From the NCBI GenBank assembly GCA_942493095.1, contig OW818675.1:2670001-2702000 (forward strand): DNA of 32,000 nucleotides, written 5' to 3'. The notes beneath the pieces are model-generated. The model was given only the letters and a program-made list of their open reading frames with translations. It was not told where the DNA came from and did no database searches. The position numbers were made by a program, and so were the translations under genes. Positions 1,204 through 16,700 of this stretch are shown here, one piece after another (positions within the stretch are counted from its first letter, which is position 1; each line of letters starts with the position of its first letter). The stretch comes from Candidatus Electronema halotolerans (lineage in GTDB: Bacteria; Desulfobacterota; Desulfobulbia; Desulfobulbales; Desulfobulbaceae).

Positions 1204-1437
1204 TCAGACTTCCGGCGCAATCCAATGCACATTGCTGCCAGTTAACTGGGAAGGCTCAGGAATTTCCTGCTCCTGCTCAAGGCGGTGCTCCATGACCAGC
1301 GTCAGCACTTCAGCAGCGTTGAACAAGGCTTCGTCCAGAGTTTTCCCTTGCGTCATCGCCTCCTCAAGATCAGGAAAGGCGACAAAGAAGATGCCGTCCT
1401 CCTCCTTTGTGGCTCGTGCCGGATATGCAATTTTCAT
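1204..1437 (-). CDS. HicB-family antitoxin-like protein (N-terminal HicB/DUF1902-like domain only, 77 aa)
   Basis: Last 77 codons of track ORF 1204-1662, starting at ATG 1437. MKIAYPARATKEEDGIFFVAFPDLEEAMTQGKTLDEALFNAAEVLTLVMEHRLEQEQEIPEPS fits the HicB N-domain pattern (Y.a...edG.f.v.fPDl....tqG.TleEAl.na.eal......IP.P). No C-terminal RHH/HTH domain and no hicA partner found in any frame of 1438-1741. The upstream part of the track ORF is the lysS remnant. Confidence 0.6.
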   Translation of the reverse strand: MKIAYPARATKEEDGIFFVAFPDLEEAMTQGKTLDEALFNAAEVLTLVMEHRLEQEQEIPEPSQLTGSNVHWIAPEV

Positions 1438-1451
1438 TTCAGCTTCACGTC

Positions 1452-1532
1452 GGCAGAGAGCTGGATCACAATCCCGGATGGAGTGCGAGTCCGTGAGCAG
1501 CATGGCCCTTCGCCCGCCGCAGAGGGCAATCT
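1452..1532 (-). pseudogene. decayed remnant of a lysyl-tRNA synthetase 3' end (class II motif 3 region)
   Basis: Minus-strand reading gives ...GGRRAMLLTDSHSIRDCD..., compared with the intact lysS C-terminus [22 protein letters not shown]. Hand alignment of 1464-1504 to lysS 2981-3019: 32 of 40 aligned positions identical, with a 1-nt indel. A second block (1506-1530 vs about 3041-3065) matches 21/25 after a ~19-nt deletion. No start, no upstream catalytic domain. Confidence 0.65.
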
Positions 1533-1647
1533 GACTGCTGCACGATAAGCGTGAAACTGCCTGAACAGGCATCGTAGGCATCGGCGTGTTTTTTGTCAAC
1601 AGGAAAGATGGGAAAACTGAAGCGCACGAGCGGCCTGAACTGGACAG

Positions 1648-1672
1648 CACTTGTGAGCGCAACTCACAAGTG
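1648..1672. other. perfect 10-bp inverted repeat CACTTGTGAG-cgcaa-CTCACAAGTG (hairpin or operator-like palindrome)
   Basis: Read directly. A third copy of ACTCACAAG at 1685-1693 and a small palindrome GAGTCaGACTC at 1678-1688 follow. It lies downstream of the 1742 stop and about 210 nt upstream of the HicB-like ATG on the minus strand. No U-tract on the minus strand. Confidence 0.5.
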
Positions 1673-1741
1673 TTTATGAGTCAGACTCACAAGCATGATC
1701 CAGTTTGGCGTGGAAGCACTGCGCGGCAAAGGGGAGTAAAG

Positions 1742-2470
1742 TCAGTTGCGCGGCAATTGGTTGGGATTTGCTTTGTTCATCTCTGATTCCGTGCTGCATT
1801 CTTCCGCTTCCCATTCTGTAACCAAGCGATCAACAGACTGAAATATTTTGGTGACTGCGACTGAGTCAATCAACTCGCTTGCGCCGTGGGCGATCCGGTT
1901 GCGCCTGTCCATGAACTCGTGAAAAAAATCAATATCATCTACTGATATTTCTCCTTGCGAGTACATCTGCTTCAGCAGCCTTGAAGCAGGAAAACGTTCA
2001 ACAGGAATATGTTGAGCAATTGCCCGTTTTCGCAACGCTGCTTCAAAGATGCTCCAGAGGTAAAGCAGGGCAGGTTCAAGGATGCCTTCTGCAATGAGAG
2101 ATTGCGCTTGCCGCAGCTTTGTCGATATCTGCGACCAAGCAGGCAATTCCCTGCTGGTTGTTGGAATATCTAATGAATCAACGTCCTCTAATGTCACCAG
2201 CAAAAAACGCCAGCCAGGATGCTTGGATATCTCCTGAGCAAGCAATTGAAAGCGATCAACAGAAATACGAGATGCGCTTGGCTTCACTTCAATTATCAAT
2301 CCGACATCGCCCTTCGTGGCCACCAAATCTGGTCTGTATTCGCCAAGATCGAAAGGCAGATCATCAACAGATGGTTCCTTGACAACAGTAAATCCTTGTT
2401 GCGTGTAGGATGAAGCCAACGAATCAATTTTTTCATTCTCATTGCTGGCTGTTTTTGCAGAGCTGTTCAT
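1742..2470 (-). CDS. hypothetical two-domain protein: N-terminal PD-(D/E)xK (restriction-endonuclease fold) + C-terminal HEPN-like domain
   Basis: 242-aa ORF. ATG 2470 overlaps the stop of the upstream ORF (ATGA). N-half: EYRPDLVATKGDVGLIIEVKPS = D...ExK nuclease motif preceded by a helix. C-half: all-helical context ending FHEFMDRRNRIAHGAS, with an R-x4-H motif (RNRIAH) as in HEPN RNases (DUF4145/HepT-like). Domain calls are by eye only. Confidence 0.7.
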   Translation of the reverse strand: MNSSAKTASNENEKIDSLASSYTQQGFTVVKEPSVDDLPFDLGEYRPDLVATKGDVGLIIEVKPSASRISVDRFQLLAQEISKHPGWRFLLVTLEDVDSLDIPTTSRELPAWSQISTKLRQAQSLIAEGILEPALLYLWSIFEAALRKRAIAQHIPVERFPASRLLKQMYSQGEISVDDIDFFHEFMDRRNRIAHGASELIDSVAVTKIFQSVDRLVTEWEAEECSTESEMNKANPNQLPRN

Positions 2471-2874
2471 AGGTAACTCCCAAGGTCTTGTGCCTCACTG
2501 ACCCTCACATAGACACATTCATTTCCCTCAGCAACGCCTATTTGGAGCAATGGGGGAAGATTTGTCACATCAATTGGATCGGTCAAAAACCTTCGATGGC
2601 TATCGATATCAGACACAATGCTGTCATCCTCATAAACTAACCCCACGAGAGCATCTTGAATCGGCTTAATAATATTGTCTATGTCTGCTGGTGTGCTATT
2701 GCAAAGATAGACTATCGAAAATCGAAGTGAAGGTGAAGACAATGGAGGAGTGCTGCTGCTCCATACCTTTTTTGCTTCTTTAGTCACGAAGCTCTTCCAT
2801 GCTTGAAGATTTTTTCTGTGTCTCGCCTGCTGTGAAACAGGTCGTTTCCGAATCAGGAATTCAAAGGGCTTCAT
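2467..2874 (-). CDS. RusA-like endodeoxyribonuclease (Holliday-junction resolvase fold) homologue
   Basis: 135-aa ORF. PADIDNIIKPIQDALVGLVYEDDSIVSD matches the RusA-family catalytic core as I remember it (D-[LI]-D-N-x2-K-x3-D-A-L ... DD). The N-terminal FEFLIRKRPVSQQ also resembles the RusA start. No obvious SD before ATG 2874. Lower GC than lysS. Confidence 0.6.
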   Translation of the reverse strand: MKPFEFLIRKRPVSQQARHRKNLQAWKSFVTKEAKKVWSSSTPPLSSPSLRFSIVYLCNSTPADIDNIIKPIQDALVGLVYEDDSIVSDIDSHRRFLTDPIDVTNLPPLLQIGVAEGNECVYVRVSEAQDLGSYL

Positions 2875-2893
2875 ATACGTTTAAACCAGCAAT

Positions 2894-2928
2894 GCAGGTT
2901 GGAAAAATTGAAGCACTCTCCAACCTGC
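2894..2928. other. perfect 10-bp stem / 15-nt loop hairpin between the lysS stop and the RusA-like start
   Basis: GCAGGTTGGA-aaaattgaagcactc-TCCAACCTGC read directly. It lies 19 nt after the lysS stop on the minus strand, with no U-tract after it. It could be a weak terminator, a processing site or an old attachment-site element. Confidence 0.45.
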
Positions 2929-2947
2929 ACAGCTCCTGGACAACGAA

Positions 2948-4432
2948 TCACTTCGCTTCCGCCTTCAAATGCGGAAAGAGAATCACATCCCTGATCGAAG
3001 GCGAATCAGTCAGCAGCATGACCAGCCGGTCAATGCCAATGCCTTCACCCGCTGCTGAGGGCATTCCATACTCCAAGGCGCGGACATAGTCCTGATCCAG
3101 CTCAGGATGAATCTCCTCATCCTCGCCGCGCTCCGCAATCTGCTTGACGAAACGCTCATGCTGATCAATCGGATCATTCAGCTCAGAGAAGGCATTGGCA
3201 ATCTCCCTGCCTGTGATGAACAGCTCGAAGCGGTCGGTCACGCTGGGGTCATCCTCGTTGCGGCGGGCGAGCGGCGATATCTCCGCAGGGTAGGAGGTGA
3301 TGAAGGTCGGGTTGATCAGCTTCTCCTCCACCAGCAGCTCGAACAGGCCGGTGCGGGCCTTGCCCGGCCCGGAGTCTGGCTGCAAGTCCACCTTGTGCTG
3401 CTTGGCCAGCTCCATCACCGCCACATCATCGGCCACTGTAGCCGCATCCAAGCCTGCAATCTCGGTCAGAGCCTCGGTCATCGTCAGCCGCTGCCAGGGC
3501 GGGGCAAGGCTGATCGGCGTGCCTTGGTACGTGATCTGCATGGTGCCGTTCACCTGCTGACAGATGGAGGAAATCATCTCCTCAGTCAGGTCCATCAGGT
3601 CGTCATAAGTCGCATACGCCTGATAAAACTCCAGCATGGTGAACTCAGGATTGTGCCGCGTCGAAAGCCCCTCATTGCGGAAGTTGCGGTTGATCTCAAA
3701 GACCCGCTCAAAGCCGCCCACCACCAGCCGCTTGAGGTACAGCTCCGGGGCGATGCGCAGATACAGCTCCATGTCCAGCGCGTTGTGGTGGGTGATGAAG
3801 GGCTTGGCCGCCGCGCCGCCCGGAATCGGGTGGAGCATCGGCGTTTCCACCTCCAAGAAGCCGCGCTGGCTCAGAAACTCACGCAGCAGACGGATGATCT
3901 CCATGCGCTTGCGAAAGGTGCTGCGCACCTCCGGGTTGACGATCAGGTCAACGTAACGCTGGCGGTAGCGGGTCTCCACATCAGTCAGGCCGTGGAACTT
4001 CTCCGGCAGCGGGCGCAGGGACTTGCTGATCAGATGCAGCTTGGTTGCCTCAATGGACGGCTCGCCAGTCTTGGTCTTGAACGGCCTGCCCTCCACGCCG
4101 ACAATGTCGCCGGTATCCCATTTCTTAAAGTGACCGAACTGCTCCGCGCCGAGCACGTCCAAGCGAGCGTACACCTGGATGCGGGCCGACTCATCCTGCA
4201 AATGAAAGAAGGCGGCCTTGCCAAACTTGCGCATTGACATGACCCGGCCAGCGACTCGGCAGGACACGTCTTCCGGGGCATGCGCTTCCGGCTCCAAGGC
4301 CTCGGCCTGCGGCAGAATCTCGGCAATATGCTGCGGATGCTTGAAATCGTTGCTGAACAGCTTCACGCCGTCATCGGCGAGGCTCTGCGCCTTTTCCCGG
4401 CGCTGCTTGAGGAGGTTGTTGAGATTGTCCAT
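2948..4432 (-). CDS. lysS: lysine--tRNA ligase (class II LysRS)
   Basis: 494-aa ORF with class IIb hallmarks: [23 protein letters not shown] (motif 2 region) and [26 protein letters not shown] (motif 3). ATG 4432 directly abuts the ablB stop (TAAATG). Confidence 0.97.
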
Positions 4433-5314
4433 TTAGTGCATTGATTGATTTGAGGCTGCTTTCGGCTGCATCAGCGGCTTGTGCCAGACATTCATGCTTT
4501 CAATGCTGCCGGAGATATTGGTGTTGTTCTTCAGCCTGCCGGCAAACTGATACGCAGCCTTGGCAAAGGTGATGTTCATGCCCGGCGACATGGCCCTGGC
4601 TATGGTGTAGGCGGTCATGATCTGCTCCTGCCGCAGATGCTGCTCCATGCGGCGGAGCAGATGCAGGGCCAGACTGTTGCCTGTCCATTCCGGCAGGGTG
4701 GCGAAATCAGTGATCTCGGCATTGGCGGCCTCGTGGTCTATTTCCGCCGAACCAAGAGCAACCAGCCTGCCCTTGGTCTCAATACCGAAATAGGCGACAT
4801 GGCTGCGCATGGTCTCCAGCAAATATTCCGCCTCATAGATGGGAAATGGGTAGGAGGGAAAGACCTGCCGGTAAATGGCCGCCATTGCCGCTGCATCCGC
4901 CTCGGTGCAGCGGCGCACTGTGAAAGCGGCATCAAGGGCAGGCATTCCATCGCCCTGCTTTGCCTCGGCCAGCCGAAGAAATTCTTCCATTGCCGCAGCA
5001 TCTGTTTCTTTGCTCCGCTCCTTCTGCAAATAACGGCAGAGAAACAAGGCATTTTCCTGGCCGACAAAGAAACCGGGAATGTCGGCCTCTTCTTGGAAAC
5101 CAATCTCAAGAAAGCCAGCCGCAGCCGTCTCAGGCACCTTGGCGAAGATCTTGGAATAATCGTTCTCCCTTGCAAAGGCGACAAGCTGATCTGGGAAATC
5201 AGCCGCCGCTTCCGGGTCCAAGCGCATCAGATAAACCCGATCATTGTACGGCCCGTGCTGAATCAGGCTGCCGCACAGCTCCTCAATCTTATCCTGCGGC
5301 GGCATCCGACTCAT
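4433..5314 (-). CDS. ablB: beta-lysine N6-acetyltransferase (GNAT, AblB-type)
   Basis: 293-aa ORF immediately downstream of and overlapping ablA. N-terminal [12 protein letters not shown] region plus a GNAT-like C-half ([11 protein letters not shown]...[24 protein letters not shown]). Position after a lysine 2,3-aminomutase is the classic abl arrangement. ATG 5314 overlaps ablA by 26 nt. The alternative ATG 5305 has better spacing from GGGAGG. Confidence 0.8.
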
Positions 5315-6617
5315 CCTCCCGCTTGCTCATCCGCTCGTTGTCCGCAGGCACCAAGGAGATGGTGTCATTATAATCGGCCAGCAGCTTCCTGATCCCGACC
5401 GGCTGGTATTCCGTGGCCTCGTCCAAGGCAAGCTGGAGGTCGCACTGATCGCATTTGCGGTTGCAGAAGACTGGCTCGTAGGAGTCAGGCTCTTTATACG
5501 TGGTGATCACGCCCTCGTAATTGCGCAGCACCACTTTGTTGGTTGACCACGAGATCAGATAGTTAGGCATGACCGGAATCTTGCCGCCACCGCCAGGCGC
5601 ATCAATGACATAGGTCGGCACACTGAAACCGCTTGTATGGCCGATCATGCTCTCGATAATCTCAATGCCCTTGCCCACCGGCGTTCTGAAATGGGACAGC
5701 CCTTCTGAGAGGTCGCACTGGTAGAGATAATAGGGCCTGACCCGGTTAGCGACTAATTTATGCACCAGCGTCCGCATGATTCGAGGACAGTCGTTCACGC
5801 CTGCCAAGAGCACGGTCTGGTTGCCGAGCGGAATGCCTGCGTCGGCCAGTTTAGCCAAAGCGCGCCGGGCTGAGGCTGTCACCTCTCTTGGGTGATTGAA
5901 ATGAGTGTTGATCCAAAGGGGATGATGCTTCTTCAGCATCGCGACCAGCTCATCCGTGATCCGATAGGGCAGGACCACCGGCGTTCTGGTGCCGATGCGG
6001 ACCACCTCAACATGCTTGATCTTGCCCAGTTCGGTGAGGATGTAATCTAAATACTCATCCGAGAGCAGAAAGGGGTCGCCGCCGCTGAGAAGCACATCCC
6101 TAATTCTTGGCGTGCTGCGGATATAGTCCAAGCCCTGCTCAATGACTTCCCGTGACGGGATGCTGTCTCGGTCGCCAACCTTTCGCTTGCGGGTGCAGTG
6201 ACGGCAGTACATGGCGCAGACATTGCTGACCAGAAAAAGCACGCGGTCAGGATAGCGGTGGGTGATGCCCGGCACCGGACTGTCCTGATCCTCATGCAGC
6301 GGGTCAGCCATGTCTGCGTCAGCTATGTCAAGTTCCTTGATCGAAGGAACGGCCTGCATGAACACAGGATCATGTTCAAAATCATCCCGGTTGATCAGCG
6401 ATAAATAATACGGGGTGATGGAGAGAGGAAATTTCTCTATGGTCGTCCGAATCTGCTCTCTGATCTCCTCTTTCAGTTCCAAGTCAAGGAAATTTTCTAT
6501 ATCCTCCAGTGATCTGATCCGGTGCCGCACCTGCCATTTCCAGTCCTGCCACAGCGACTTAGAAACATCCACATCAATCCTTTCTGCTATTTCCTGCTGA
6601 TTTTCCGTATAAATCAT
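5289..6617 (-). CDS. ablA: L-lysine 2,3-aminomutase (radical SAM, KamA/AblA)
   Basis: Radical-SAM [11 protein letters not shown] (CxxxCxxC). KamA-type N-terminus [13 protein letters not shown]-terminal region [15 protein letters not shown]. The track start 6635 is TTG; ATG 6617 (MIYTEN...) is preceded by AAGGA 6 nt upstream and is preferred. Confidence 0.9.
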
Positions 6618-6702
6618 TCCAATCCTTTTGTTCAATGAATGCTTGAGCAGGACTGCTGTTCGCTATTTTAGTCGGAATAAGCAGTCTGCCGCCTATAAAC
6701 CG

Positions 6703-7797
6703 TTAGGTCAGATATTTTGCCCGCAAATTAGCGGACACGGCCTTGGTCATGTCCAGCACCTTCCGGGCGTGTTCCTGCCTGAGCGAGCCAGTGCCGCAGC
6801 TTGGCGTGATCAGCATCTGCCGGAGTAAATCCGCCTGCTCCCGGCCCGGCTTGATAAGTTTTCGTACCTGGTGCTCCCAGAGCAAGGTCAGCGACTCTGC
6901 GCTTTCCTTATCAATATCATAAGGTTTGCCAGTGGGAATACCGCCCCAGGCGAGAATGCCGCCCCGGTCCAAATAGCTGTGGACTTGCTCAGTCAATGCG
7001 GCAAGTTTGTCAAAAAAACTATAGGCATCAAAGCTAAGAATGTCAATTTTTGAGGAAAGCAGGACTTCCCATTCCGTGTTGGCACAGACATGAATTCCGG
7101 CCAGACCGCCTGCCGCGTGGATTGCCTCGGCGACTTCGTTGAGCATTTCCTGAACGGTGGCGTTGCTCACCGAGATGAACGCCGAGGAACCTAATCCGGC
7201 CAAGGCTGGTTCGTCAATAAAAACGATCACCTGCCCGCCGCAGCGTTCAGCAAGGAAGCGGGTCTGCCACGCCGCCTTCATGGCAATGCCTTTGACCACC
7301 ATTTCCCGGACTGTGTCGTCGTAATAACCCGCCCGGCCTTGGCTGTCCTTAATGCCGGTGAGCATGGTGAACGGGCCTGTTACTTGCCCTTTGACGGCAA
7401 CAGGCTGGCGGTTGCTTGCCTCAAGGTTCGCAGCAAACTGATACAGGCCCTCGGCCCGCGCCCGGCTGACTTGGAAGCGGGAGCCGAGCAGCTTGGCCGG
7501 GTCTTCCTGCACGGTCATGTAATCTTCATAAAAAGCCAGCATCTCGGCTTCAAAGTCCGGGCCGCCAGTGTCATAGAAGATGCGGCCTTCCGGCGCGGTC
7601 AGGTTTTCCTCGCAGATGCAGGGAATGCCTTCGGCAAACTGGGGCATCATCTGTTCAAGAGGATTGCCGGGCAGCTGCGGCCAGAGGGGAATCTCCGGCG
7701 TGGCCGTGAAAATCCAGTCAAGGGCCTGCTGGTGGTCGTTGAGCGGCAGAGAGCCGATCAGGACGGGCAGGCCGAAGGGGGTGAAATGATTTGTCAT
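6703..7797 (-). CDS. cobalamin-independent methionine synthase (MetE C-terminal)-like / URO-D-like superfamily protein
   Basis: 364-aa ORF, ATG 7797. GIHVCANTEW and LITPSCGTGS resemble the His/Cys zinc-ligand strings of the MetE catalytic domain (H.C ... CG). Exact function not assignable by eye. Confidence 0.6.
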   Translation of the reverse strand: MTNHFTPFGLPVLIGSLPLNDHQQALDWIFTATPEIPLWPQLPGNPLEQMMPQFAEGIPCICEENLTAPEGRIFYDTGGPDFEAEMLAFYEDYMTVQEDPAKLLGSRFQVSRARAEGLYQFAANLEASNRQPVAVKGQVTGPFTMLTGIKDSQGRAGYYDDTVREMVVKGIAMKAAWQTRFLAERCGGQVIVFIDEPALAGLGSSAFISVSNATVQEMLNEVAEAIHAAGGLAGIHVCANTEWEVLLSSKIDILSFDAYSFFDKLAALTEQVHSYLDRGGILAWGGIPTGKPYDIDKESAESLTLLWEHQVRKLIKPGREQADLLRQMLITPSCGTGSLRQEHARKVLDMTKAVSANLRAKYLT

Positions 7798-7868
7798 AAC
7801 AAAACCTTGCCAACTATTTCAAAAAAAGAATCATTCTTGCATCAGACATGATTGCAATGAGCAGATGT

Positions 7869-8288
7869 TTATCGCTGGAAATCGCTAAAGAACGCACCCC
7901 GAAAGAAACGTTTCCCTTTAACAAGCATAAATGCCCATGCAAGTATAGCAACGCCAGTGACCTGACTGTACGGAATGTTTAAATTTGCAAATTGCTCTGG
8001 AAAAAGCCCAGCAAATCCTAATGGCATTATCGCAACACCTATGTATGGACCAATATCTCTTCCGTTGAAGAAAAATATTCCTGCATAAATTATAATTATT
8101 ATTACCAGATAAGCAGAGAGTGAACCAAAAATGAGAACTGTTAGATATGTAAGCAGCAAGCCAAAACCAGTATATTTTTGTATTGAAGGCCCGAATTCGA
8201 CTAAATATGAGCTGATCAAGGCGGAGATAAAAATACTTGCTGACAAATCATCTACTGCTTTTGCGAAAGTTGTGCTTAATGGCTCCAT
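7869..8288 (-). CDS. small integral membrane protein (4-5 hydrophobic segments), hypothetical
   Basis: Track ORF 7869-8372 trimmed to ATG 8288 (MEPLSTT...). That ATG sits 2 nt after the vapC stop (TAGATATG) with AGGGA 7 nt upstream. Very hydrophobic (LLLTYLTVLIFGSLSAYLVIIIIIYAGIFFF etc.). AT-rich. Confidence 0.55.
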   Translation of the reverse strand: MEPLSTTFAKAVDDLSASIFISALISSYLVEFGPSIQKYTGFGLLLTYLTVLIFGSLSAYLVIIIIIYAGIFFFNGRDIGPYIGVAIMPLGFAGLFPEQFANLNIPYSQVTGVAILAWAFMLVKGKRFFRGAFFSDFQR

Positions 8289-8290
8289 AT

Positions 8291-8710
8291 CTATTCCCTG
8301 TTGTCTTGCTTGTTGTCTGATTTCAATATTTGAATATTCGGTGTTATTCCAGCCTGTCGTGCCTGTTTGCAAAAATTGCGGTCAAAAGTATGCAATGCAG
8401 CTTGACTGCAAGCTGCCAAGTGCATCGCATCGGCGAAATCAGCACCCAATGCATACCATGTTATTGCTTGCTCAAATTGCGCTGCATCTTCCAGCATCAC
8501 ATTTTCAATTTCCAGCAATAAGTTGAAAAACGTGAGCAGTTCGTCACGGCTTTTTCGATAACGTGAACGAAGCACCCATTCTGTTTCGAGCAGAACTGTT
8601 TTTGGCAGAAAAACCGTATTGTCAGCGAGTAATACTTCTGCTGAATCAGCCTGCTCTTTATCATCATCAGCAAGGAAACGAACCAATATGCAGGTGTCAA
8701 ACGCTATCAT
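8291..8710 (-). CDS. vapC: PIN-domain ribonuclease toxin VapC
   Basis: MIAFDTCILVRFL... (conserved Asp at position 5), then LLETEWVL and ADAMHLA acidic/PIN strings. ATG 8710 overlaps the vapB stop (ATGA). The track start 8740 would overlap vapB by 34 nt and is rejected. Confidence 0.85.
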   Translation of the reverse strand: MIAFDTCILVRFLADDDKEQADSAEVLLADNTVFLPKTVLLETEWVLRSRYRKSRDELLTFFNLLLEIENVMLEDAAQFEQAITWYALGADFADAMHLAACSQAALHTFDRNFCKQARQAGITPNIQILKSDNKQDNRE

Positions 8711-8958
8711 TTCTCCTCCGAATAATCCACTGGTGCGCAAAGCTGTTCATTGGATAATGACTGTCCTTTATGTTTAAGAAGACCGCGCAATTCCTCCATC
8801 CGACGTTTTTTTTTCGGCTCGTGCTTGGGATGAATCAGCAGTCCTGATGCAATGATGCTGATATTAAACTCCATTCCGCTTTGCCATCGCAGCATGTCCC
8901 GAATGGCTGCCGGGATATTGAGCTGTCCTGCTTCCGAAAGCTGCACCGTTGTTTTCAT
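8707..8958 (-). CDS. vapB: AbrB/SpoVT/MazE-fold antitoxin VapB
   Basis: 83-aa ORF MKTTVQLSEAGQLNIPAAIRDMLRWQSGMEFNISI... (swapped-hairpin looped-barrel pattern). Sits directly upstream of and overlapping a PIN toxin. Confidence 0.75.
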   Translation of the reverse strand: MKTTVQLSEAGQLNIPAAIRDMLRWQSGMEFNISIIASGLLIHPKHEPKKKRRMEELRGLLKHKGQSLSNEQLCAPVDYSEEK

Positions 8959-8980
8959 ACTTTCACAGTTAGTTAAGAAA

Positions 8981-9321
8981 TTAGCTGGCTATTCTGCCAT
9001 GCAGCACCGTCTTCAAATAATCCTGCGCAGCAACAAATTCCGGTTTCCTGCCGTTCATCTTTTTCATCAGCGGCAGCACGGATGCCCATGCAATCAGCAT
9101 ATCGTAATCCCGCAGCACTTCCATGATCATCCGATTCCGTGCGCACTGCTGCCCGACCAGCATCTCTTCCTCCACGCCGAGCAGAATCATGCCGCCTTGG
9201 AAGTTGGTCATTGCCGCGCTATTTTTTTGGCCAGCTGCTCAGGCCGGATGTCATCCCGCTTGAATTCCAGCCCTGAGTTTTCCCCATTGGCAATCAGTTC
9301 AAGCAGTTCTGTCTTCAGCAT
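8981..9321 (-). pseudogene. frameshifted and internally deleted AlbA_2 / Schlafen-like ATP-dependent DNA-binding protein gene
   Basis: Frame 1 from ATG 9321: MLKTELLELIANGENSGLEFKRDDIRPEQLAKKIARQ*. This has the AlbA_2 hallmark E.(L/V)EFK and stops at 9210-9208. It continues in another frame (track ORF 8981-9211) as MTNFQGGMILLGVEEE..., then jumps to a C-terminal-type string ARNRMIMEVLRDYDMLIAWASVLPLMKKMNGRKPEF. An A7 run (9222-9228) is the likely frameshift site. Total length is about 110 aa, whereas intact family members are several hundred. Confidence 0.6.
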
Positions 9322-10790: not shown

Positions 10791-13700
10791 TTATTCTCCG
10801 AGCAGATGCAGCTCCACCCGCCGGTTTTTCGCCCGGCCTTCCCGGGTGCTGTTGTCCGCAACCGGATTGTCTTGGCCATAGCCTTTGCTGACCATCAGCT
10901 CTCTCCTGATGCCTTGGCTGATCAGGAAATTGCGCACTGCGTCAGCCCGGCGCTGCGAGATGACTTGGTTTCGCTCCGGGCTGCCCACGCTGTCTGTGTA
11001 GCCTGCAACTTCAAACTTCTGCTCCGCCGCTGCCTGCTTGATCAGGGCGGCGGCAGTGGTCAGGCTTTTCCGGGCCTCATCAGTCAGTTCCGCAGTGCCA
11101 AGGGCAAAATTGACCCCGGAAAGCACAATAGCCCTGCTTTCCTCGCAACCCATTTTATTGACCGTTGCCCCGTTCTGCGTTTCCGGGCAGAGATCCTCGC
11201 CGTCAGCCACGCCGTCGCCGTCCTTATCCGCTGCTGGCTCTTGGGCCGCCGGGGCAGCCTGTTCCGGGCTGTCAGTTTGCTCCTGCGATGCCACTGGCTG
11301 CTGCTTGAGCGCATTCAACTCCGCCTGCAACGATTCGATCTGCTTGCGGCTTTCTGTCAGCTCCGTCTTGAGCTGCTCCGAGTCATCCCCCTCCTGAACA
11401 GCGGCGGCTTCAGCACTTTGCGTCACTTGCTCCATTTTGGCCGCAGCCTGCTCAAGAGCGGCGGATTTTTCATCCAGCGCGGTTTTGAGCTGCTCTATTT
11501 CCTGGCGCAGATTTTCTTTAGCCTCAGTCAGCTCAGTCTCTTTTGCGCTCAGATTCTTCTTGAGACCGTCAATCTCCTCCTGCAAGGCCGCCGCATCCTT
11601 GCCTGCCTCCTGCTGGGCCTGCTGCTTCTTCTGCGCTGCAGCAAGCGCGGTCTCAGCTTCAGCTAATTTGCCTTGAACAGTCTTCAGCTCTTCCTGCAAG
11701 GCAGCGGTCTTGCCCTGCTTCTGCGCTTTTGCCAAGGCCGTCTCTTTTTCTGCCAGCGTTTTTTTCAGGCTGTCCAACTCCTGCTGCAAGGCCGTGTTTT
11801 GCCCTTGGTTCTTCTGAGCTTCAGCAAGTGCGGCTTCGCTTTTGGTCAGCTTGGCTTTAACCGTCTTCAGCTCCTCTGCCAAAGCAGCTATTTTTTCTTG
11901 GGCGGCTTTAAGCTGATCAGCTCCTGTCTGCATCTCCACAGACTGCGCTTCCAAAGCAGCTTCCTTTTCCGCCTGACTTTGCTTCAAGGCAGCAACTTCC
12001 TGCTGCAAGGCAGCGAGCTGCTCCTGGCTCTTCTGCGCTTGGGCAAGCTCGGCTTCCCTCTCGGCCAGCTTGTCCTTCACCGCCTGCAGGTCCGCAACTT
12101 GGACTTCCAAATCGGTATTTTTCTTTTTCGCCTCGGCAAGCTGTTCCTTTAAGGGCTGGAGATTGGCCACTTCCGCTTCCAAGGCAGCAACCTGCTCGGC
12201 AGCAGCCTGCACTTTTTCATGCACTGCCTCCAGATCAGCTAATTTTTTCTCCGCTTCCTGCTTCTGCTGCCGGGCCAGATCCAGCTCCTGCTCCATGTCA
12301 GCAGCCTTGCTTTCCAGTGCCGCAGCCTTCTCGTCCGCCGCCGTCAGTTTGCCTTTGATGTCCTCAGCCTGAGCATCAGCATCAGCAAGCTGGCCGCTCC
12401 GCTCTTCCAACTGCTGCGTTGTTGCTGCCAGCTCGTTATTAGCCGTCTCCAGCTCGCCGGTCAGCTTCTCCTGAGCGGCAGTCAGATCAGCAATTTTCTG
12501 AGTCAGCTCCGCAGCCTGCTGTTTTTTTGCCGCAATCTCGGTCTGCAATTTCTCGTTTTCCGCTCTGAGAACGGTGAGCACCTCATCCTTGCCGGTCAGG
12601 CTCTGCTCTAGACCACGCTCTTTTTCCTTTGCTGCGGCAAGACCTTCTTCGGCTGTCTGCAAGGCCGTCTTGGTTTCCGCAAGCTGCTTTTCCAGAGCTG
12701 CGGCAGCATCTGCTTTCTGTTGCAGCTCCTGCCGCAGCTGTTCGGCCTCTTTCTCCTGCACCTTTTTTTCCTGCATCAGTCCGGTCACTTGCGCAACCAA
12801 ATCCTGACCATAGGCCTTGGCCTCGTCAAGCTGCTCGCGGGCCGCCTCCAGATTGGCCTGCCTTTCGGCAATCTGCCCTTTCAGCTCGGCAATCCGCTGC
12901 TCTGAGGGCGCATATTCCTGCTCCTTTTTTTCGCCATAGCTGAACATGGCCTCAGCCTTCATCTGAGCGGCCTTGAGCGACTGCTCCAGCTCCTTGATTT
13001 TGACAGCAGATGCGACCAACAGACTTTTCTGGTTCTCCAGCTTGAGCTGCCGCTCATCAAGCAGGGACTGGAGCTTTTGCTGCTTGCCGCTGACTTCCTG
13101 CGCATGCTTCTCTGCCGCCGCCTTGGCGATTGCGCCCTGCTCCAGCACTTTTTCCAGCTCGGCGATTTTTGTCTTGGCCGCATCGGCCTGCGACTTGCTC
13201 TCCGCAGCCTGCTTCTTCTGCTCGTCAAGCTGGGCAGTCAACTTTTTAACTTCTCCGGCCAGCCGGTGCTGCTCCCCGGAAGTCTGCTTCAGTTTCTGCT
13301 GCAGATCAGCCAGCTCCGCCTGCCGCTGTTTCAGAGCATCCTGCGCATCTGCCCTGCCCTTCTCGGCTGCGGCTAATTTCTGCTTGAGATCAGCAAGTTG
13401 CTTGTCTTTCGCCGCTGCTGTCTGCTGCAAGGCACTGACCTGCTCGGTCAGCTTCTTGCCTGCCGCATCAGCCGCAGCCTGCTGCTGCTTGGCCTCAGCC
13501 AGCAGCTTCTCCTGCTCCGCAGCCTGCTTTTGCAGCTCGGCCAATTGCTTTTCTGCTGCGGCCAGCTTCTGCCCCTGCTCCTTGCCGTAGCTTGCCAAAG
13601 ACTCAGCCTTGAGTTCAGCCTTGCGCCGCGCTTCTTCAAGAGCAGCCTGCGTTTCCTTGTCAGCAGCAAGCTGCGCCGCTGTCTGCTCGACCTGGCGGTT

Positions 13701-16700
13701 CAGCTCAAAAATACGGCTCTCCGCCGCCTGCTGGGCCTGGCGCAGCTTGGCAATCTCCTCCTGCAAGGTCTGCTTCTTCTGATTCTGTTTACCCTTCCCC
13801 TCGGCAAGGCTGCTGGTCAGCTTGCTGATTTCCTTGGTGAGCTGCTGCTTTTCCAGCTCCAGCTTCTGCTGGACAGCCGCCAAGTCCTCCTGCCGCTGTT
13901 CCAGAGCGTCCTGCGCATCTGTTTTGTCCTTCTCGGCTGCGGCAAGCTGCTGCTTGAGATCAGCCAACTGCTTGTCTTTCGCCGCTGCTGTCTGCTGCAG
14001 CGCATTGATCTGTTCAGCCAGCTTCTCCTGCTCCGCAGCCTGCTTTTGCAGCTCGGCCAATTGCTTCTCTGCTGCGGCCAGCTTCTTTTCCTGCTCCTTG
14101 CCGTAGCTTGCCAAAGACTCAGCCTTGAGTTCAGCCTTGCGCCGCGCTTCTTCAAGAGCAGCCTGCGTTTCCTTGTCAGCAGCAAGCTGCGCCGCTGTCT
14201 GCTCGGCCTGGCGGTTCAGCTCAAAAATACGGCTCTCCGCCGCCTGCTGGGCCTGGCGCAGCTTGGCAATCTCCTCCTGCAAGGTCTGCTTCTTCTGATT
14301 CTGTTTACCCTTCCCCTCGGCAAGGCTGCTGGTCAGCTTGCTGATTTCCTCGGTGAGCTGCTGCTTTTCCAGCTCCAGCTTCTGCTGGACAGCCGCCAAG
14401 TCCTCCTGCCGCTGTTCCAGAGCGTCCTGCGCATCTGCCTTGTCCTTCTCCGCTGCGGCAAGCTGCTGCTTCAGATCAGCCAGCTGCTTGTCTTTCGCCG
14501 CTGCTGTCTGCCGCAGGCCATTGATCTGTTCAGCCAGCTTCTTGCCTACAGCCTGCTGCTGCCTAGCCTCAGCCAGCAGCTTCTCCTGCTCCGCAGCCTG
14601 CTTTTGCAGCTCGGCCAATTGCTTTTCCGCTGTGGCCAGCTTCTTTTCCTGCTCCTTGCCGTAGCTTGCCAAAGACTCAGCCTTGAGTTCAGCCTTGCGC
14701 CGCGCTTCTTCAAGAGCAGCCTGCGTGTCCTTGTCAGCAGCAAGCTGCGCCGCTGTCTGCTCGACCTGGCGGTTCAGCTCAAAAATACGGCTCTCCGCTG
14801 CCTGCTGGGCCTGGCGCAGCTTGGCAATTTCCTCCTGCAAGGTCTGCTTCTTCTGATTCTGTTTACCCTTCCCCTCGGCAAGGCTGCTGGTCAACTTGTT
14901 GATTTCCTCGGTGAGCTGCTGCTTTTCCAGCTCCAGCTTCTGCTGGACAGCCGCCAAGTCGTCCTGCCGCTGTTCCAGAGCGTCCTGCGCATCTGTTTTG
15001 TCCTTCTCCGCTGCGGCAAGCTGCTGCTTCAGATCAGCCAGCTGCTTGTCTTTCGCCGCTGCTGTCTGCTGCAGGCCATTGATCTGTTCAGCCAGCTTCT
15101 TGCCTACAGCCTGCTGCTGCCTAGCCTCAGCCAGCAGCTTCTCCTGCTCCGCAGCCTGCTTTTGCAGCTCGGCCAATTGCTTTTCCGCTGTGGCCAGCTT
15201 CTTTTCCTGCTCCTTGCCGTAGCTTGCCAAAGACTCAGCCTTGAGTTCAGCCTTGCGCCGCGCTTCTTCAAGAGCAGCCTGCGTGTCCTTGTCAGCAGCA
15301 AGCTGCGCCGCTGTCTGCTCGACCTGGCGGTTCAGCTCAAAAATACGGCTCTCCGCCGCCTGCTGGGCCTGGCGCAGCTTGGCAATTTTCTCCTGCAAGG
15401 TCTGCTTCTTCTGATTCTGTTTACCCTTCCCCTCGGCAAGGCTGCTGGTCAACTTGTTGATTTCCTCGGTGAGCTGCTGCTTTTCCAGCTCCAGCTTCTG
15501 CTGGACAGCCGCCAAGTCCTCCTGCCGCTGCTCCAGAGCGTCCTGCGCATCTGCCTTGTCCTTCTCCGCTGCGGCAAGCTGCTGCTTCAGATCAGCCAGC
15601 TGCTTGTCTTTCGCCGCTGCCACCTGCTGCAGCGCATTGATCTGTTCAGCCAGCTTCTTGCCTACAGCCTGCTGCTGCCTAGCCTCAGCCAGCAGCTTCT
15701 CCTGCTCCGCAGCCTGCTTTTGCAGCTCGGTCAATTGCTTTTCCGCTGTGGCCAGCTTCTTTTCCTGCTCCTTGCCGTAGCTTGCCAAAGACTCAGCCTT
15801 GAGTTCAGCCTTGCGCCGCGCTTCTTCAAGGGAAGCCTGCGTTTCCTTGTCAGCAGCAAGCTGCGCCGCTGTCTGCTCGGCCTGGCGGTTCAGCTCAAAA
15901 ATACGGCTCTCCGCCGCCTGCTGGGCCTGGCGCAGCTTGGCAATCTCCTCCTGCAAGGTCTGCTTCTTCTGATTCTGTTTACCCTTCCCCTCGGCAAGGC
16001 TGCTGGTCAGCTTGCTGATTTCCTCGGTGAGCTGCTGCTTTTCCAGCTCCAGCTTCTGCTGGACAGCCGCCAAGTCGTCCTGCCGCTGTTCCAGAGCGTC
16101 CTGCGCATCTGCCTTGTCCTTCTCCGCTGCGGCAAGCTGCTGCTTCAGATCAGCCAGCTGCTTGTCTTTCGCCGCTGCCACCTGCTGCAGGCCATTGATC
16201 TGTTCAGCCAGCTTGTCCTGCTCCGCTGCCTGCTTTTGCAGCTCGGCCAATTGCTTTTCCGCTGCGGCCAGCTTCTTTTCCTGCTCCTTGCCGTAGCTCA
16301 TCAGCGACTCAGCCTTGAGTTCAGCCTTGCGCCGCGCTTCTTCAAGGGAAGCCTGCGTTTCCTTGTCAGCAGCAAGCTGCGCCGCTGTCTGCCCGGCCTG
16401 GCGGTTCAAGGCGAAAATGCGGCTCTCCGCAGCCTGCTGGGCCTGCTGGAGCTGCGCAATCTTTTCCTGCAAGGACTGCTTGGTCTGATTTTGCTGATTC
16501 TTTTGTTGGGCAAGGCTGTCAGTCAGTTTGCTGATTTTTTGAGTAAGCTGCTGCTTCTCCTGCGCCAGCTGCTGCTGGACAGCCGCCAATTCTTCCTGCC
16601 ACTCCTCCAGAGCGGTCTGCGCATCTGTCTTGTCTTTCTCGGCAGCGGCAAGCTGCTGCTTGAGACCAGCAAGCTGCTTGTCCTTCTCCGCTGCCGCCTG

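Follow-up and report, generated by a model that had tools for sequence, protein, structure and literature searches.

A divergent RusA gene obligately linked to an AHJR nuclease-HEPN gene in Candidatus Electronema halotolerans and other bacteria: a possible two-nuclease module of genetic conflict

RusA endonucleases, Mg2+-dependent homodimers that resolve Holliday junctions and can suppress E. coli ruv mutants, are classically prophage-borne, and HEPN and PD-(D/E)xK domains are recurrent effectors in genetic conflicts. The subject of this report is a pair of overlapping genes, here called g1 and g2, found at the 3' end of lysS in a stretch of 32,000 nucleotides (nt) from the cable bacterium Candidatus Electronema halotolerans (contig OW818675.1, positions 2,670,001 to 2,702,000); the whole stretch is referred to as the window, and all coordinates are counted from its first letter. 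The first gene is predicted to encode a RusA-family endonuclease, and the second a PD-(D/E)xK nuclease of the AHJR (Hjc-like) family fused to a minimal HEPN domain. Fusions of an Hjc-like restriction endonuclease (REase) to a minimal HEPN domain were catalogued in silico in 2013, as a single table line describing an occasional architecture of the HEPN-M/DUF86 group, with no function or operon assigned (Anantharaman et al., PMC3710099). The word RusA has 0 occurrences in the text of that paper.

The pair itself appears to have been met once before. In Planktothrix rubescens, a 1194-bp insertion in the mcyT-mcyD spacer consists of a RusA open reading frame (ORF) and an overlapping 227-amino-acid (aa) Hjc-like ORF, and 20.6% of filaments carry it, with a single position and orientation (Chen et al., 2016, PMC4766695). 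The insertion was treated as a neutral polymorphism only, with no recognition of its HEPN domain, of how conserved the pairing is or of how widely it occurs (PMC4766695); it is equated with g1-g2 here by its published description, not by sequence alignment to the window. Literature searches combining AHJR, RusA or Holliday junction (HJ) resolvase with HEPN or defence returned nothing on the pair except PMC4766695. A sequence-only reading of the window, which preceded the present analysis, had called the pair an uncharacterised module. In terms of function this stands, while the architecture of g2 was listed in 2013 and the pair had been seen, uninterpreted, in Planktothrix. New here, as far as the searched literature shows, are the obligate partnership with RusA, its breadth and the cassette behaviour of the pair; the domains and the g2 architecture were known.

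The two genes and their immediate landmarks are as follows.

2467 to 2874, minus strand: g1, ORF of 135 aa, RusA-family endonuclease of a divergent subfamily (predicted)
1742 to 2470, minus strand: g2, ORF of 242 aa, predicted AHJR (Hjc-like) PD-(D/E)xK nuclease plus minimal HEPN
2102 to 2461, minus strand: AHJR-like restriction-endonuclease-fold domain of g2, residues 4-123, motif P47-D48...E61-x-K63
1796 to 2089, minus strand: HEPN domain of g2, approximately residues 128-225, R190-N191-x3-H195, with conserved E143/R147 in helix 1
2467 to 2470, minus strand: ATGA, shared by the last codon of g1 and the first of g2 (translational coupling), read from the sequence
2948 to 4432, minus strand: lysS, whose 3' end lies 73 nt upstream of g1

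The ATGA overlap reported in the sequence-only reading is confirmed at 2467-2470, and the motifs quoted there are present, namely ADIDNIIKPIQDALVGLVYEDD in g1 and both YRPDLV...IIEVK and RRNRIAH in g2.

Homologous loci reveal that this arrangement is not particular to the window. Among 30 genome loci selected through g2, g1 lies directly upstream in 27, and in the three exceptions (L006, L007 and L019) just the last ~25 codons of g1 are left. Conversely, g2 lies directly downstream in 77 of 80 metagenome loci selected through g1, the other three running off the contig (77/77 testable loci). The 4-nt stop/start overlap is kept in 108 of 109 loci, a set that includes near-identical ones and comprises 75 non-redundant pairs at 95% g2 identity. 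As the same pair with the same overlap recurs in 108/109 related loci, the association is not a matter of chance. Linkage extends to ~30% identity: on plasmids of Rhizobium and Agrobacterium the pair is still present at g2 identities of 26-31%, and both the pair and its -4 junction are found in the two distant representatives examined (~30% identity). The co-occurrence of the two genes in other genomes, which the sequence-only reading had proposed as a test, is thereby established, and g1-g2 is an obligately linked unit.

The two proteins have also diverged together. Their identities, compared pair by pair, are correlated (r = 0.90), and g1 is the more conserved partner in 99% of comparisons (mean identity 61% vs 44%). 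In Rugamonas sp. DEMB1 P0072, the two are joined in a 323-aa in-frame fusion (...CDAQQPEELL-MTISTQ...) and a neighbouring species has two genes; the fusion could be genuine or a frameshift error. No conserved third gene was found beside the pair outside Nostocales, nor a conserved nucleotidyltransferase, the partner being RusA in every locus examined.

Several lines of evidence support the RusA alpha/beta fold of g1, as the sequence-only reading had proposed. The protein scores 30.4 bits on the Pfam RusA model PF05866 (gathering cut-off 22.8), all 41 of 41 aligned homologues match RusA and no other Pfam family, and g1 matches PHROG RusA families. Its AlphaFold2 (AF2) model has a predicted local distance difference test (pLDDT) score of 86.7, and in a Foldseek search of the PDB the seven best matches are all E. 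coli RusA (1q8r, the top match, 2h8c and 2h8e) at probability 1.0, with a template modelling (TM) score of 0.61-0.64 on the query and 0.68-0.78 on the target; the next match has a TM score of 0.34. Identity to E. coli RusA is just 14-18%, and a search of the PDB by sequence with the g1 family profile did not retrieve RusA, which is why Pfam and structure were needed for the assignment.

Profile alignment places g1 D64/D66/N67/K70/D74/D83-D84 onto E. coli RusA D70/D72/N73/K76/D80/D90-D91. The catalytic residues of the E. coli enzyme, which we take to be the Asp triad D70, D72 and D91 together with K76, thus correspond to g1 D64, D66, D84 and K70. In the 75 non-redundant homologues, D64, N67, K70, D74, D83 and D84 are invariant (75/75) and D66 is kept in 74. 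The family has an extra conserved C-terminal segment, H93-R94-R95 ... E119-C120. From profiles and models, g1 is best described as a genuine but divergent RusA, and with its catalytic residues invariant it looks like an active enzyme.

For g2, the evidence for the nuclease domain comes from sequence models and structure alike. The protein scores 88.2 bits on PF18743 REase_AHJR-like (cut-off 26.1) over residues 4-123, with a secondary match to Hjc, and among family members the PF18743 match is found in 44/44 and the Hjc match in 40/44. In Foldseek searches with the AF2 model (pLDDT 84), the N-terminal domain finds the Hjc structures 4tkd, 2wiw and 1ob8 along with the R2 endonuclease. The PD-(D/E)xK fold proposed in the sequence-only reading is upheld and can be placed specifically in the AHJR family. 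Among the 75 non-redundant members P47 is invariant, D48 and E61 are each present in 70 and K63 in 65 (with Arg in a further 6), so that the nuclease triad is conserved in 87-93%.

The HEPN assignment rests on motif and structure, since HEPN sequence models match below threshold only. None of the curated models exceeds its threshold, the best being HEPN_RiboL-PSP at 16.7 bits vs a cut-off of 28.4; sub-threshold matches to this model occur in 21/44 members (best E = 6e-4), and the remaining weak matches are all to HEPN families. The C-terminal domain of the model matches 2hsb (TM 0.73 on the target, root-mean-square deviation 2.3), 1wol, 1o3u and 4nqf, as well as HepT toxins (6m6w, 7ae6, 8yuf) and Csm6, all these HEPN matches having a probability of 0.94-1.0. 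Their Foldseek E-values, 4e-3 and weaker, are modest owing to the two-domain query. In the R-N-x3-H motif, an instance of the R-x4-6-H signature that HEPN domains carry where the last long helix begins, R190 is kept in 62 of the 75 non-redundant members (83%), N191 in 72 and H195 in 73 (96-97% for the last two). Motif conservation and the structural match to minimal HEPN and HepT proteins agree with the HEPN fold of the earlier reading, and with both sets of motifs mostly conserved, g2 too looks like an active enzyme.

The g2 family is large, with 1,770 clusters at 50% identity at E <= 1e-3 and 925 at E <= 1e-10. Most members are 215-230 aa long and align across both domains, and one distant homologue carries the NCBI label 'HepT-like ribonuclease'. 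In Nostocales, g2 reaches 300-440 aa with C-terminal extensions (L006, L007 and L037 in Dolichospermum; L010 and L019 in Nostoc). The Dolichospermum tail is RelE/Gp49-like (...YRIIFEV...IIDIVNYKR...), and the Nostoc proteins have repeated segments of the form 'LSPE(D/A)LAAFR.WF.EFD.A.WDKQIEKDV'.

The sequence-only reading had also offered g1 as a sensor of branched DNA and g2 as the effector. This division of labour is not favoured, as g1 is the slower-evolving protein with the invariant active site, and it is in g2 that sites are sometimes lost.

The pair is spread patchily across Desulfobacterota, Cyanobacteria, and Alpha-, Beta- and Gammaproteobacteria. It is a bacterial rather than a viral family by the searches made: g2 is absent from 2.9 million IMG/VR viral contigs (two scans) and from 50,697 INPHARED phage genomes (tblastn), g1 has no more than distant generic RusA matches in these collections, and a BFVD fold search yielded no viral structure that corresponds over the full length. 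The 19 Nostocales loci have the pair at one and the same syntenic site (alr, HNH, DHH/DHHA1, pair, His_Phos, gltA, ndh), which indicates vertical inheritance there. The genes for a 165-aa HNH protein and a 428-445-aa DHH/DHHA1 protein (RecJ- or nanoRNase-like) always precede the pair in this order (L033:6582-9359, L037:4959-7399), making up with it a cluster of four nucleic acid enzymes whose synteny is confined to Nostocales.

Elsewhere, the flanks vary. In P. syringae the pair adjoins SLATT/SMODS, PaaA2 and IS66, and another homologous pair adjoins TacAT. On the Rhizobium plasmid pT136b (L048) it lies near AbiEii, a restriction enzyme and UvrD, and also near xth, and on the Agrobacterium Ti plasmid pTi_CFBP2177 (L047) it adjoins imuA-imuB-dnaE2 and ligD. 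In a P2-like Pseudomonas prophage it sits in the accessory region beside a PLD nuclease, not among the replication genes. Among 114 neighbours from 14 independent non-Nostocales loci, PADLOC models match three TIR/ThsB-like proteins, one HamA, one PD-T4-6 and several candidate systems, and Pfam recognises three Uma2 proteins. The two plasmid loci L047 and L048 both have a ~650-aa 'ATP-binding protein' gene on the opposite strand just downstream of the pair; on pT136b, an IS5 element separates it from the pair, and the restriction endonuclease and UvrD helicase then follow. In a more distant locus (L131:1884-4093), genes for a DUF87 (HerA-like) ATPase and a weakly dCTP-deaminase-like protein come after the pair (~30% identity), and these surroundings may be a further neighbourhood of the defence type.

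Where the flanks of two loci are unrelated, nucleotide homology starts 1-21 nt before the g1 ATG and stops 0-32 nt after the g2 stop. In the comparison of Pseudanabaena with the Pseudomonas prophage, for instance, 85.7% nucleotide identity extends over 1078 nt with limits at -2 and +9, that is, over just the two ORFs. Near-identical contigs (98-99%; L088 vs L089, L091, L092, L096 and L097) lose flank homology at differing points (downstream of g2 after 37 or 191 nt, upstream of g1 after 198 nt), which indicates strain-level rearrangements immediately beside the pair. The pair behaves as accessory, mobile cargo, travelling as a 1.1-kb cassette. An integron gene cassette was considered and rejected: an attC site would take up about 60-140 nt downstream of the cargo, whereas homology between cassettes with unrelated surroundings ends 0-32 nt past the g2 stop, and no attC-like or other conserved element was seen there. 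Integrase genes were not seen in the annotated loci except the prophage integrase of L031. Searches of the cassette ends found no terminal inverted repeats, target duplications or shared end motif, just a 25-30-nt leader conserved within one clade.

In the window, the pair belongs to an insert at the lysS 3' end, to which the following features belong or lie next.

2987 to 3019, minus strand: DR1, a 3' coding segment of lysS, direct repeat with a second copy downstream of the pair
1471 to 1503, minus strand: DR2, degenerate copy of the lysS 3' end, which with DR1 brackets a 1516-nt unit (g1, g2 and spacer)
1504 to 1741, minus strand: spacer between g2 and DR2, 238 nt, with two CTTGTGAGT palindromic motifs (1662-1670 and 1685-1693)
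1204 to 1662, minus strand: HicB-like antitoxin fragment downstream of the pair, PF15919 36.4 bits (cut-off 27), phrog_497 E = 2e-18
2893 to 2929, minus strand: hairpin with a 10-bp stem and no T-tract, in the 73-nt lysS-g1 spacer, sequence read directly

GC content is 0.44-0.47 across g1-g2 vs 0.60-0.61 in lysS, whose product is identical to CAK8722293.1 of Candidatus Electronema halotolerans. This contrast and the HicB-like fragment confirm the low-GC insert beside a toxin-antitoxin (TA) type gene that the sequence-only reading had described. The DR pattern has exactly 2 copies in the 32 kb vs 0 expected, self-BLAST giving 79% identity over 43 nt, and DR1 and DR2 each differ at 4 of 33 positions from the lysS end of relatives; DR1 may be native or a copy brought in by the element. 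In the relatives L042 and L043, the lysS 3' end occurs just once. In L042 (LysS at least 90% identical), panB directly follows lysS and the pair is absent, and in L043 a TacAT module occupies the lysS 3' site. A further contig, L050, has at 114-372 a homologous spacer and a 26-codon lysS-3' remnant, then g1 and g2, with no lysS body. Together, the repeats and the permuted order in L050 suggest that cargo units have integrated as an array where lysS ends. That L050 might be an excised circle was rejected, as the two ends of the contig show no overlap. A strong sigma-70-like site, TTGACA-17-TACGAT (1599->1571), lies in the g2-DR2 spacer and is directed into the HicB-like gene, and the spacer probably belongs to that neighbouring cargo unit, not to the g1-g2 pair.

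Our preferred reading, held tentatively and at somewhat less than an even chance, is that g1-g2 is a self-contained, horizontally mobile two-nuclease module that acts in genetic conflict, either as anti-phage or anti-plasmid defence or in addiction. The ATGA coupling would have the two proteins made in fixed proportion and working as one complex; a stoichiometric complex is likewise suggested by the strict coupling and co-divergence of the two genes, by their natural fusion, and by a g1 that evolves slowly and has an invariant active site. In such a complex, g1, with its RusA-type catalytic core, would recognise and cut branched DNA (four-way junctions and forks), the target being the intermediates of recombination-dependent replication that are abundant in invading DNA. 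A second, Hjc-like junction nuclease and a HEPN RNase would be added by g2, the latter cleaving RNA and stopping growth when the complex becomes engaged; alternatively, within the same reading, the function may be addiction. We infer complex formation, the branched-DNA substrate, the RNase activity, the trigger and the defence phenotype in this scheme. A role in conflict is favoured by the accessory, patchy and transfer-prone distribution of the pair in combination with neighbours that are partly conflict-related.

A number of observations weigh against a role in conflict. Most of the other neighbours are plain housekeeping genes, and the defence-related matches among the neighbours are raw counts; in Rugamonas and others, the pair is found between ordinary metabolic or regulatory genes. 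Inheritance at a single site, as in Nostocales, is unusual for a defence system. The defence-island context put forward in the sequence-only reading accordingly holds in part: some loci are in defence or TA islands, but there are many housekeeping sites and the one vertical site in Nostocales. In PADLOC-DB 2.0.0, g1 has no match and g2 just a Cas4 nuclease-fold match (E = 0.017). The HEPN arginine is lost in a Nostoc clade, which has W or S instead, so that RNase activity is not universally required, and no phenotype is on record for any member of the family. The same lack of a system match in PADLOC-DB 2.0.0, together with a literature search that found no link between RusA and HEPN, agrees with the earlier statement that no named system fits the pair.

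The first alternative is that the pair is a selfish, self-mobilising cassette in which both nucleases serve the element's own spread, a reading that we regard as unlikely. The Hjc/REase-type domain would break the empty site and RusA would resolve the recombination junctions, in homing or Campbell-type insertion, with HEPN perhaps providing addiction. The polymorphic 1194-bp insertion of just these two ORFs in Planktothrix (PMC4766695) counts in favour of such an element, and the sharp homology limits at the ORF ends between unrelated flanks are in keeping with it, but limits of this kind can also be produced by purifying selection on coding sequence together with fast decay of the flanks. The pair is often a lone insert among housekeeping genes, and the lysS-panB junction of L042 is empty; insertion sites are diverse, however, whereas a homing enzyme normally has a single target. 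The lysS-3' direct repeats bracket the pair in the window, and L050 is permuted, but the repeats enclose the pair plus a spacer seemingly from the next cargo unit. Structurally, the N-terminal domain of g2 matches the R2 endonuclease, and this class of nuclease cuts targets for R2 retrotransposons and type IIS enzymes. Against self-mobilisation also stand the missing terminal inverted repeats, target duplications and conserved end motifs, the long-term vertical stability at one site in Nostocales, and the conserved RNase motif, for which this reading offers no explanation.

A related proposal, doubtful as it is, goes further and makes the pair a new kind of autonomous mobile element without transposase or integrase, with REase-type cutting, resolution by RusA and maintenance through HEPN addiction. 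It would explain both the 1.1-1.2-kb insertion polymorphisms and the transfers across phyla with cassette-sharp limits.

A type II-like TA system is the next alternative, with g2 (HEPN RNase and/or DNase) as the toxin and the protein from the coupled upstream gene g1 as its antitoxin; the sequence-only reading had entertained such a pair, and on balance we think it quite unlikely. The operon has a typical layout, the shorter gene coming first and overlapping the longer one that follows. HepT and similar minimal HEPN proteins, whose structures are the nearest to the C-terminal domain of g2, are established toxins, and the NCBI name of the distant homologue refers to HepT; HicB, TacAT, PaaA2 and AbiE modules adjoin the pair, and g2 of Nostocales has gained a RelE/Gp49-like tail. 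However, a complete, invariant RusA active site and the slower evolution of g1 are unexpected for a mere binding antitoxin. Two Dolichospermum genomes (L006 and L007) keep g2 with intact PD..EVK and RNRLAH after truncation of g1, and the MNT nucleotidyltransferase, the defining partner of HepT, is absent. While the layout fits, the enzyme-like g1 and the survival of intact g2 beyond it thus weaken a simple TA pair.

It is also conceivable, albeit improbable, that the pair serves cellular DNA repair or recombination as an alternative junction-resolving complex that is incidentally transferred horizontally. Both proteins come from HJ resolvase lineages. Repair-type neighbours are found in the Nostocales, where the vertically inherited pair lies beside the DHH/DHHA1 (RecJ-like) and HNH genes, on the Agrobacterium Ti plasmid (imuA-imuB-dnaE2 and ligD) and on the Rhizobium plasmid (xth), yet outside Nostocales no third repair gene is conserved. 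Furthermore, the pair is patchy at the strain level and accessory in Electronema and Planktothrix, g1 has decayed in 3/19 Nostocales genomes, and the conserved HEPN RNase motif has no obvious role in repair.

An origin as the leftover of a lambdoid-type prophage, in which g2 would be an unrelated gene next door, is essentially refuted, since the PHROG RusA matches of g1 and the one pair inside a P2-like prophage are set against the lack of phage genes flanking g1-g2 in the window, the absence of g2 and the generic nature of g1 matches in viral collections, the missing viral structural counterpart, the obligate linkage to g2, and the accessory, non-replication position in that P2-like prophage.

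Around the insert, the window holds further features. A consensus scan of the lysS-g1 interval (2875-2947) found no sigma-70-like promoter and no terminator. The HicB-like gene has an N-terminal domain of just ~77 aa (from MKIAYPA..., region 1204-1700), no HicA partner was recognised for it by Pfam, and it may be a decayed TA module. Apart from this fragment, the small ORFs of 1-1750 have no Pfam match. Region 1-1200 has a GC content of 0.46-0.53 and short ORFs only, with no Pfam matches; it is probably further decayed island DNA, with the far border of the insert outside the window. Upstream of lysS, a GNAT acetyltransferase is encoded at 4433-5314 (minus strand) and a 448-aa protein with a CxxxCxxC radical-SAM motif, resembling lysine 2,3-aminomutase, at 5289-6635 (minus strand). 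The two genes resemble an ablAB-type operon for the osmolyte N-acetyl-beta-lysine, as would suit a halotolerant cable bacterium. Another patch of low GC (0.39-0.44) at 7751-9000, with a 167-aa hydrophobic ORF (7869-8372, minus strand), may be another insert. A giant ORF of 2561 aa spans 10791-18476 (minus strand), with a strongly negative AT skew (-0.2 to -0.4) over at least its first ~1.2 kb (the profile ended at 12000).

Should the pair serve in defence or addiction, no earlier module of that kind would have a RusA-type junction resolvase as a core component, and branched DNA would be what marks invading DNA for recognition or destruction, a feature that few known systems exploit. If it is instead self-mobilising, it would represent a new route of gene mobility that needs neither transposase nor integrase. 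The family is large and is fixed in Nostocales, and Ti plasmids, symbiosis plasmids and a Pseudomonas prophage are among its carriers. Its current annotation as a recombination/repair resolvase next to a hypothetical protein is misleading. At 1.1 kb the pair is small enough for direct testing and is a good candidate for a new defence system or selfish element.

Among described proteins, RusA of the E. coli DLP12 prophage (PF05866) shares its fold and catalytic constellation with g1. In contrast to canonical RusA, g1 is divergent, has the extra C-terminal segment, is not phage-borne and is always coupled to a second nuclease gene. The AHJR plus minimal HEPN fusions (PMC3710099, PF18743) have the same architecture as g2, with the RusA partner unmentioned there. 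The N-terminal domain of g2 is similar in sequence and structure to archaeal Hjc and to the RLE domain of R2 retrotransposons, with PD...ExK conserved, though the first-helix Glu of Hjc is not strictly kept in the g2 family (E13 in 30/75). Unlike either, g2 is bacterial, fused to HEPN and paired with RusA, and has no reverse transcriptase.

Of the known TA systems, HepT-MNT (type VII) is the nearest, in that the C-terminal domain of g2 is closest to HepT structures and the RNase motif and two-gene operon are shared. It differs in that the partner of g2 is RusA rather than MNT, that g2 has an extra DNase domain, and that g2 persists without g1 in some genomes. A precedent for a link between HEPN and resolvases during infection is AbiD1, a HEPN abortive infection (Abi) protein of Lactococcus that acts on a phage HJ resolvase (cited in PMC3710099). 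The likeness is functional, with no homology claimed, and whereas a phage RuvC-like enzyme is the target of AbiD1, here the module itself encodes the resolvase-like protein.

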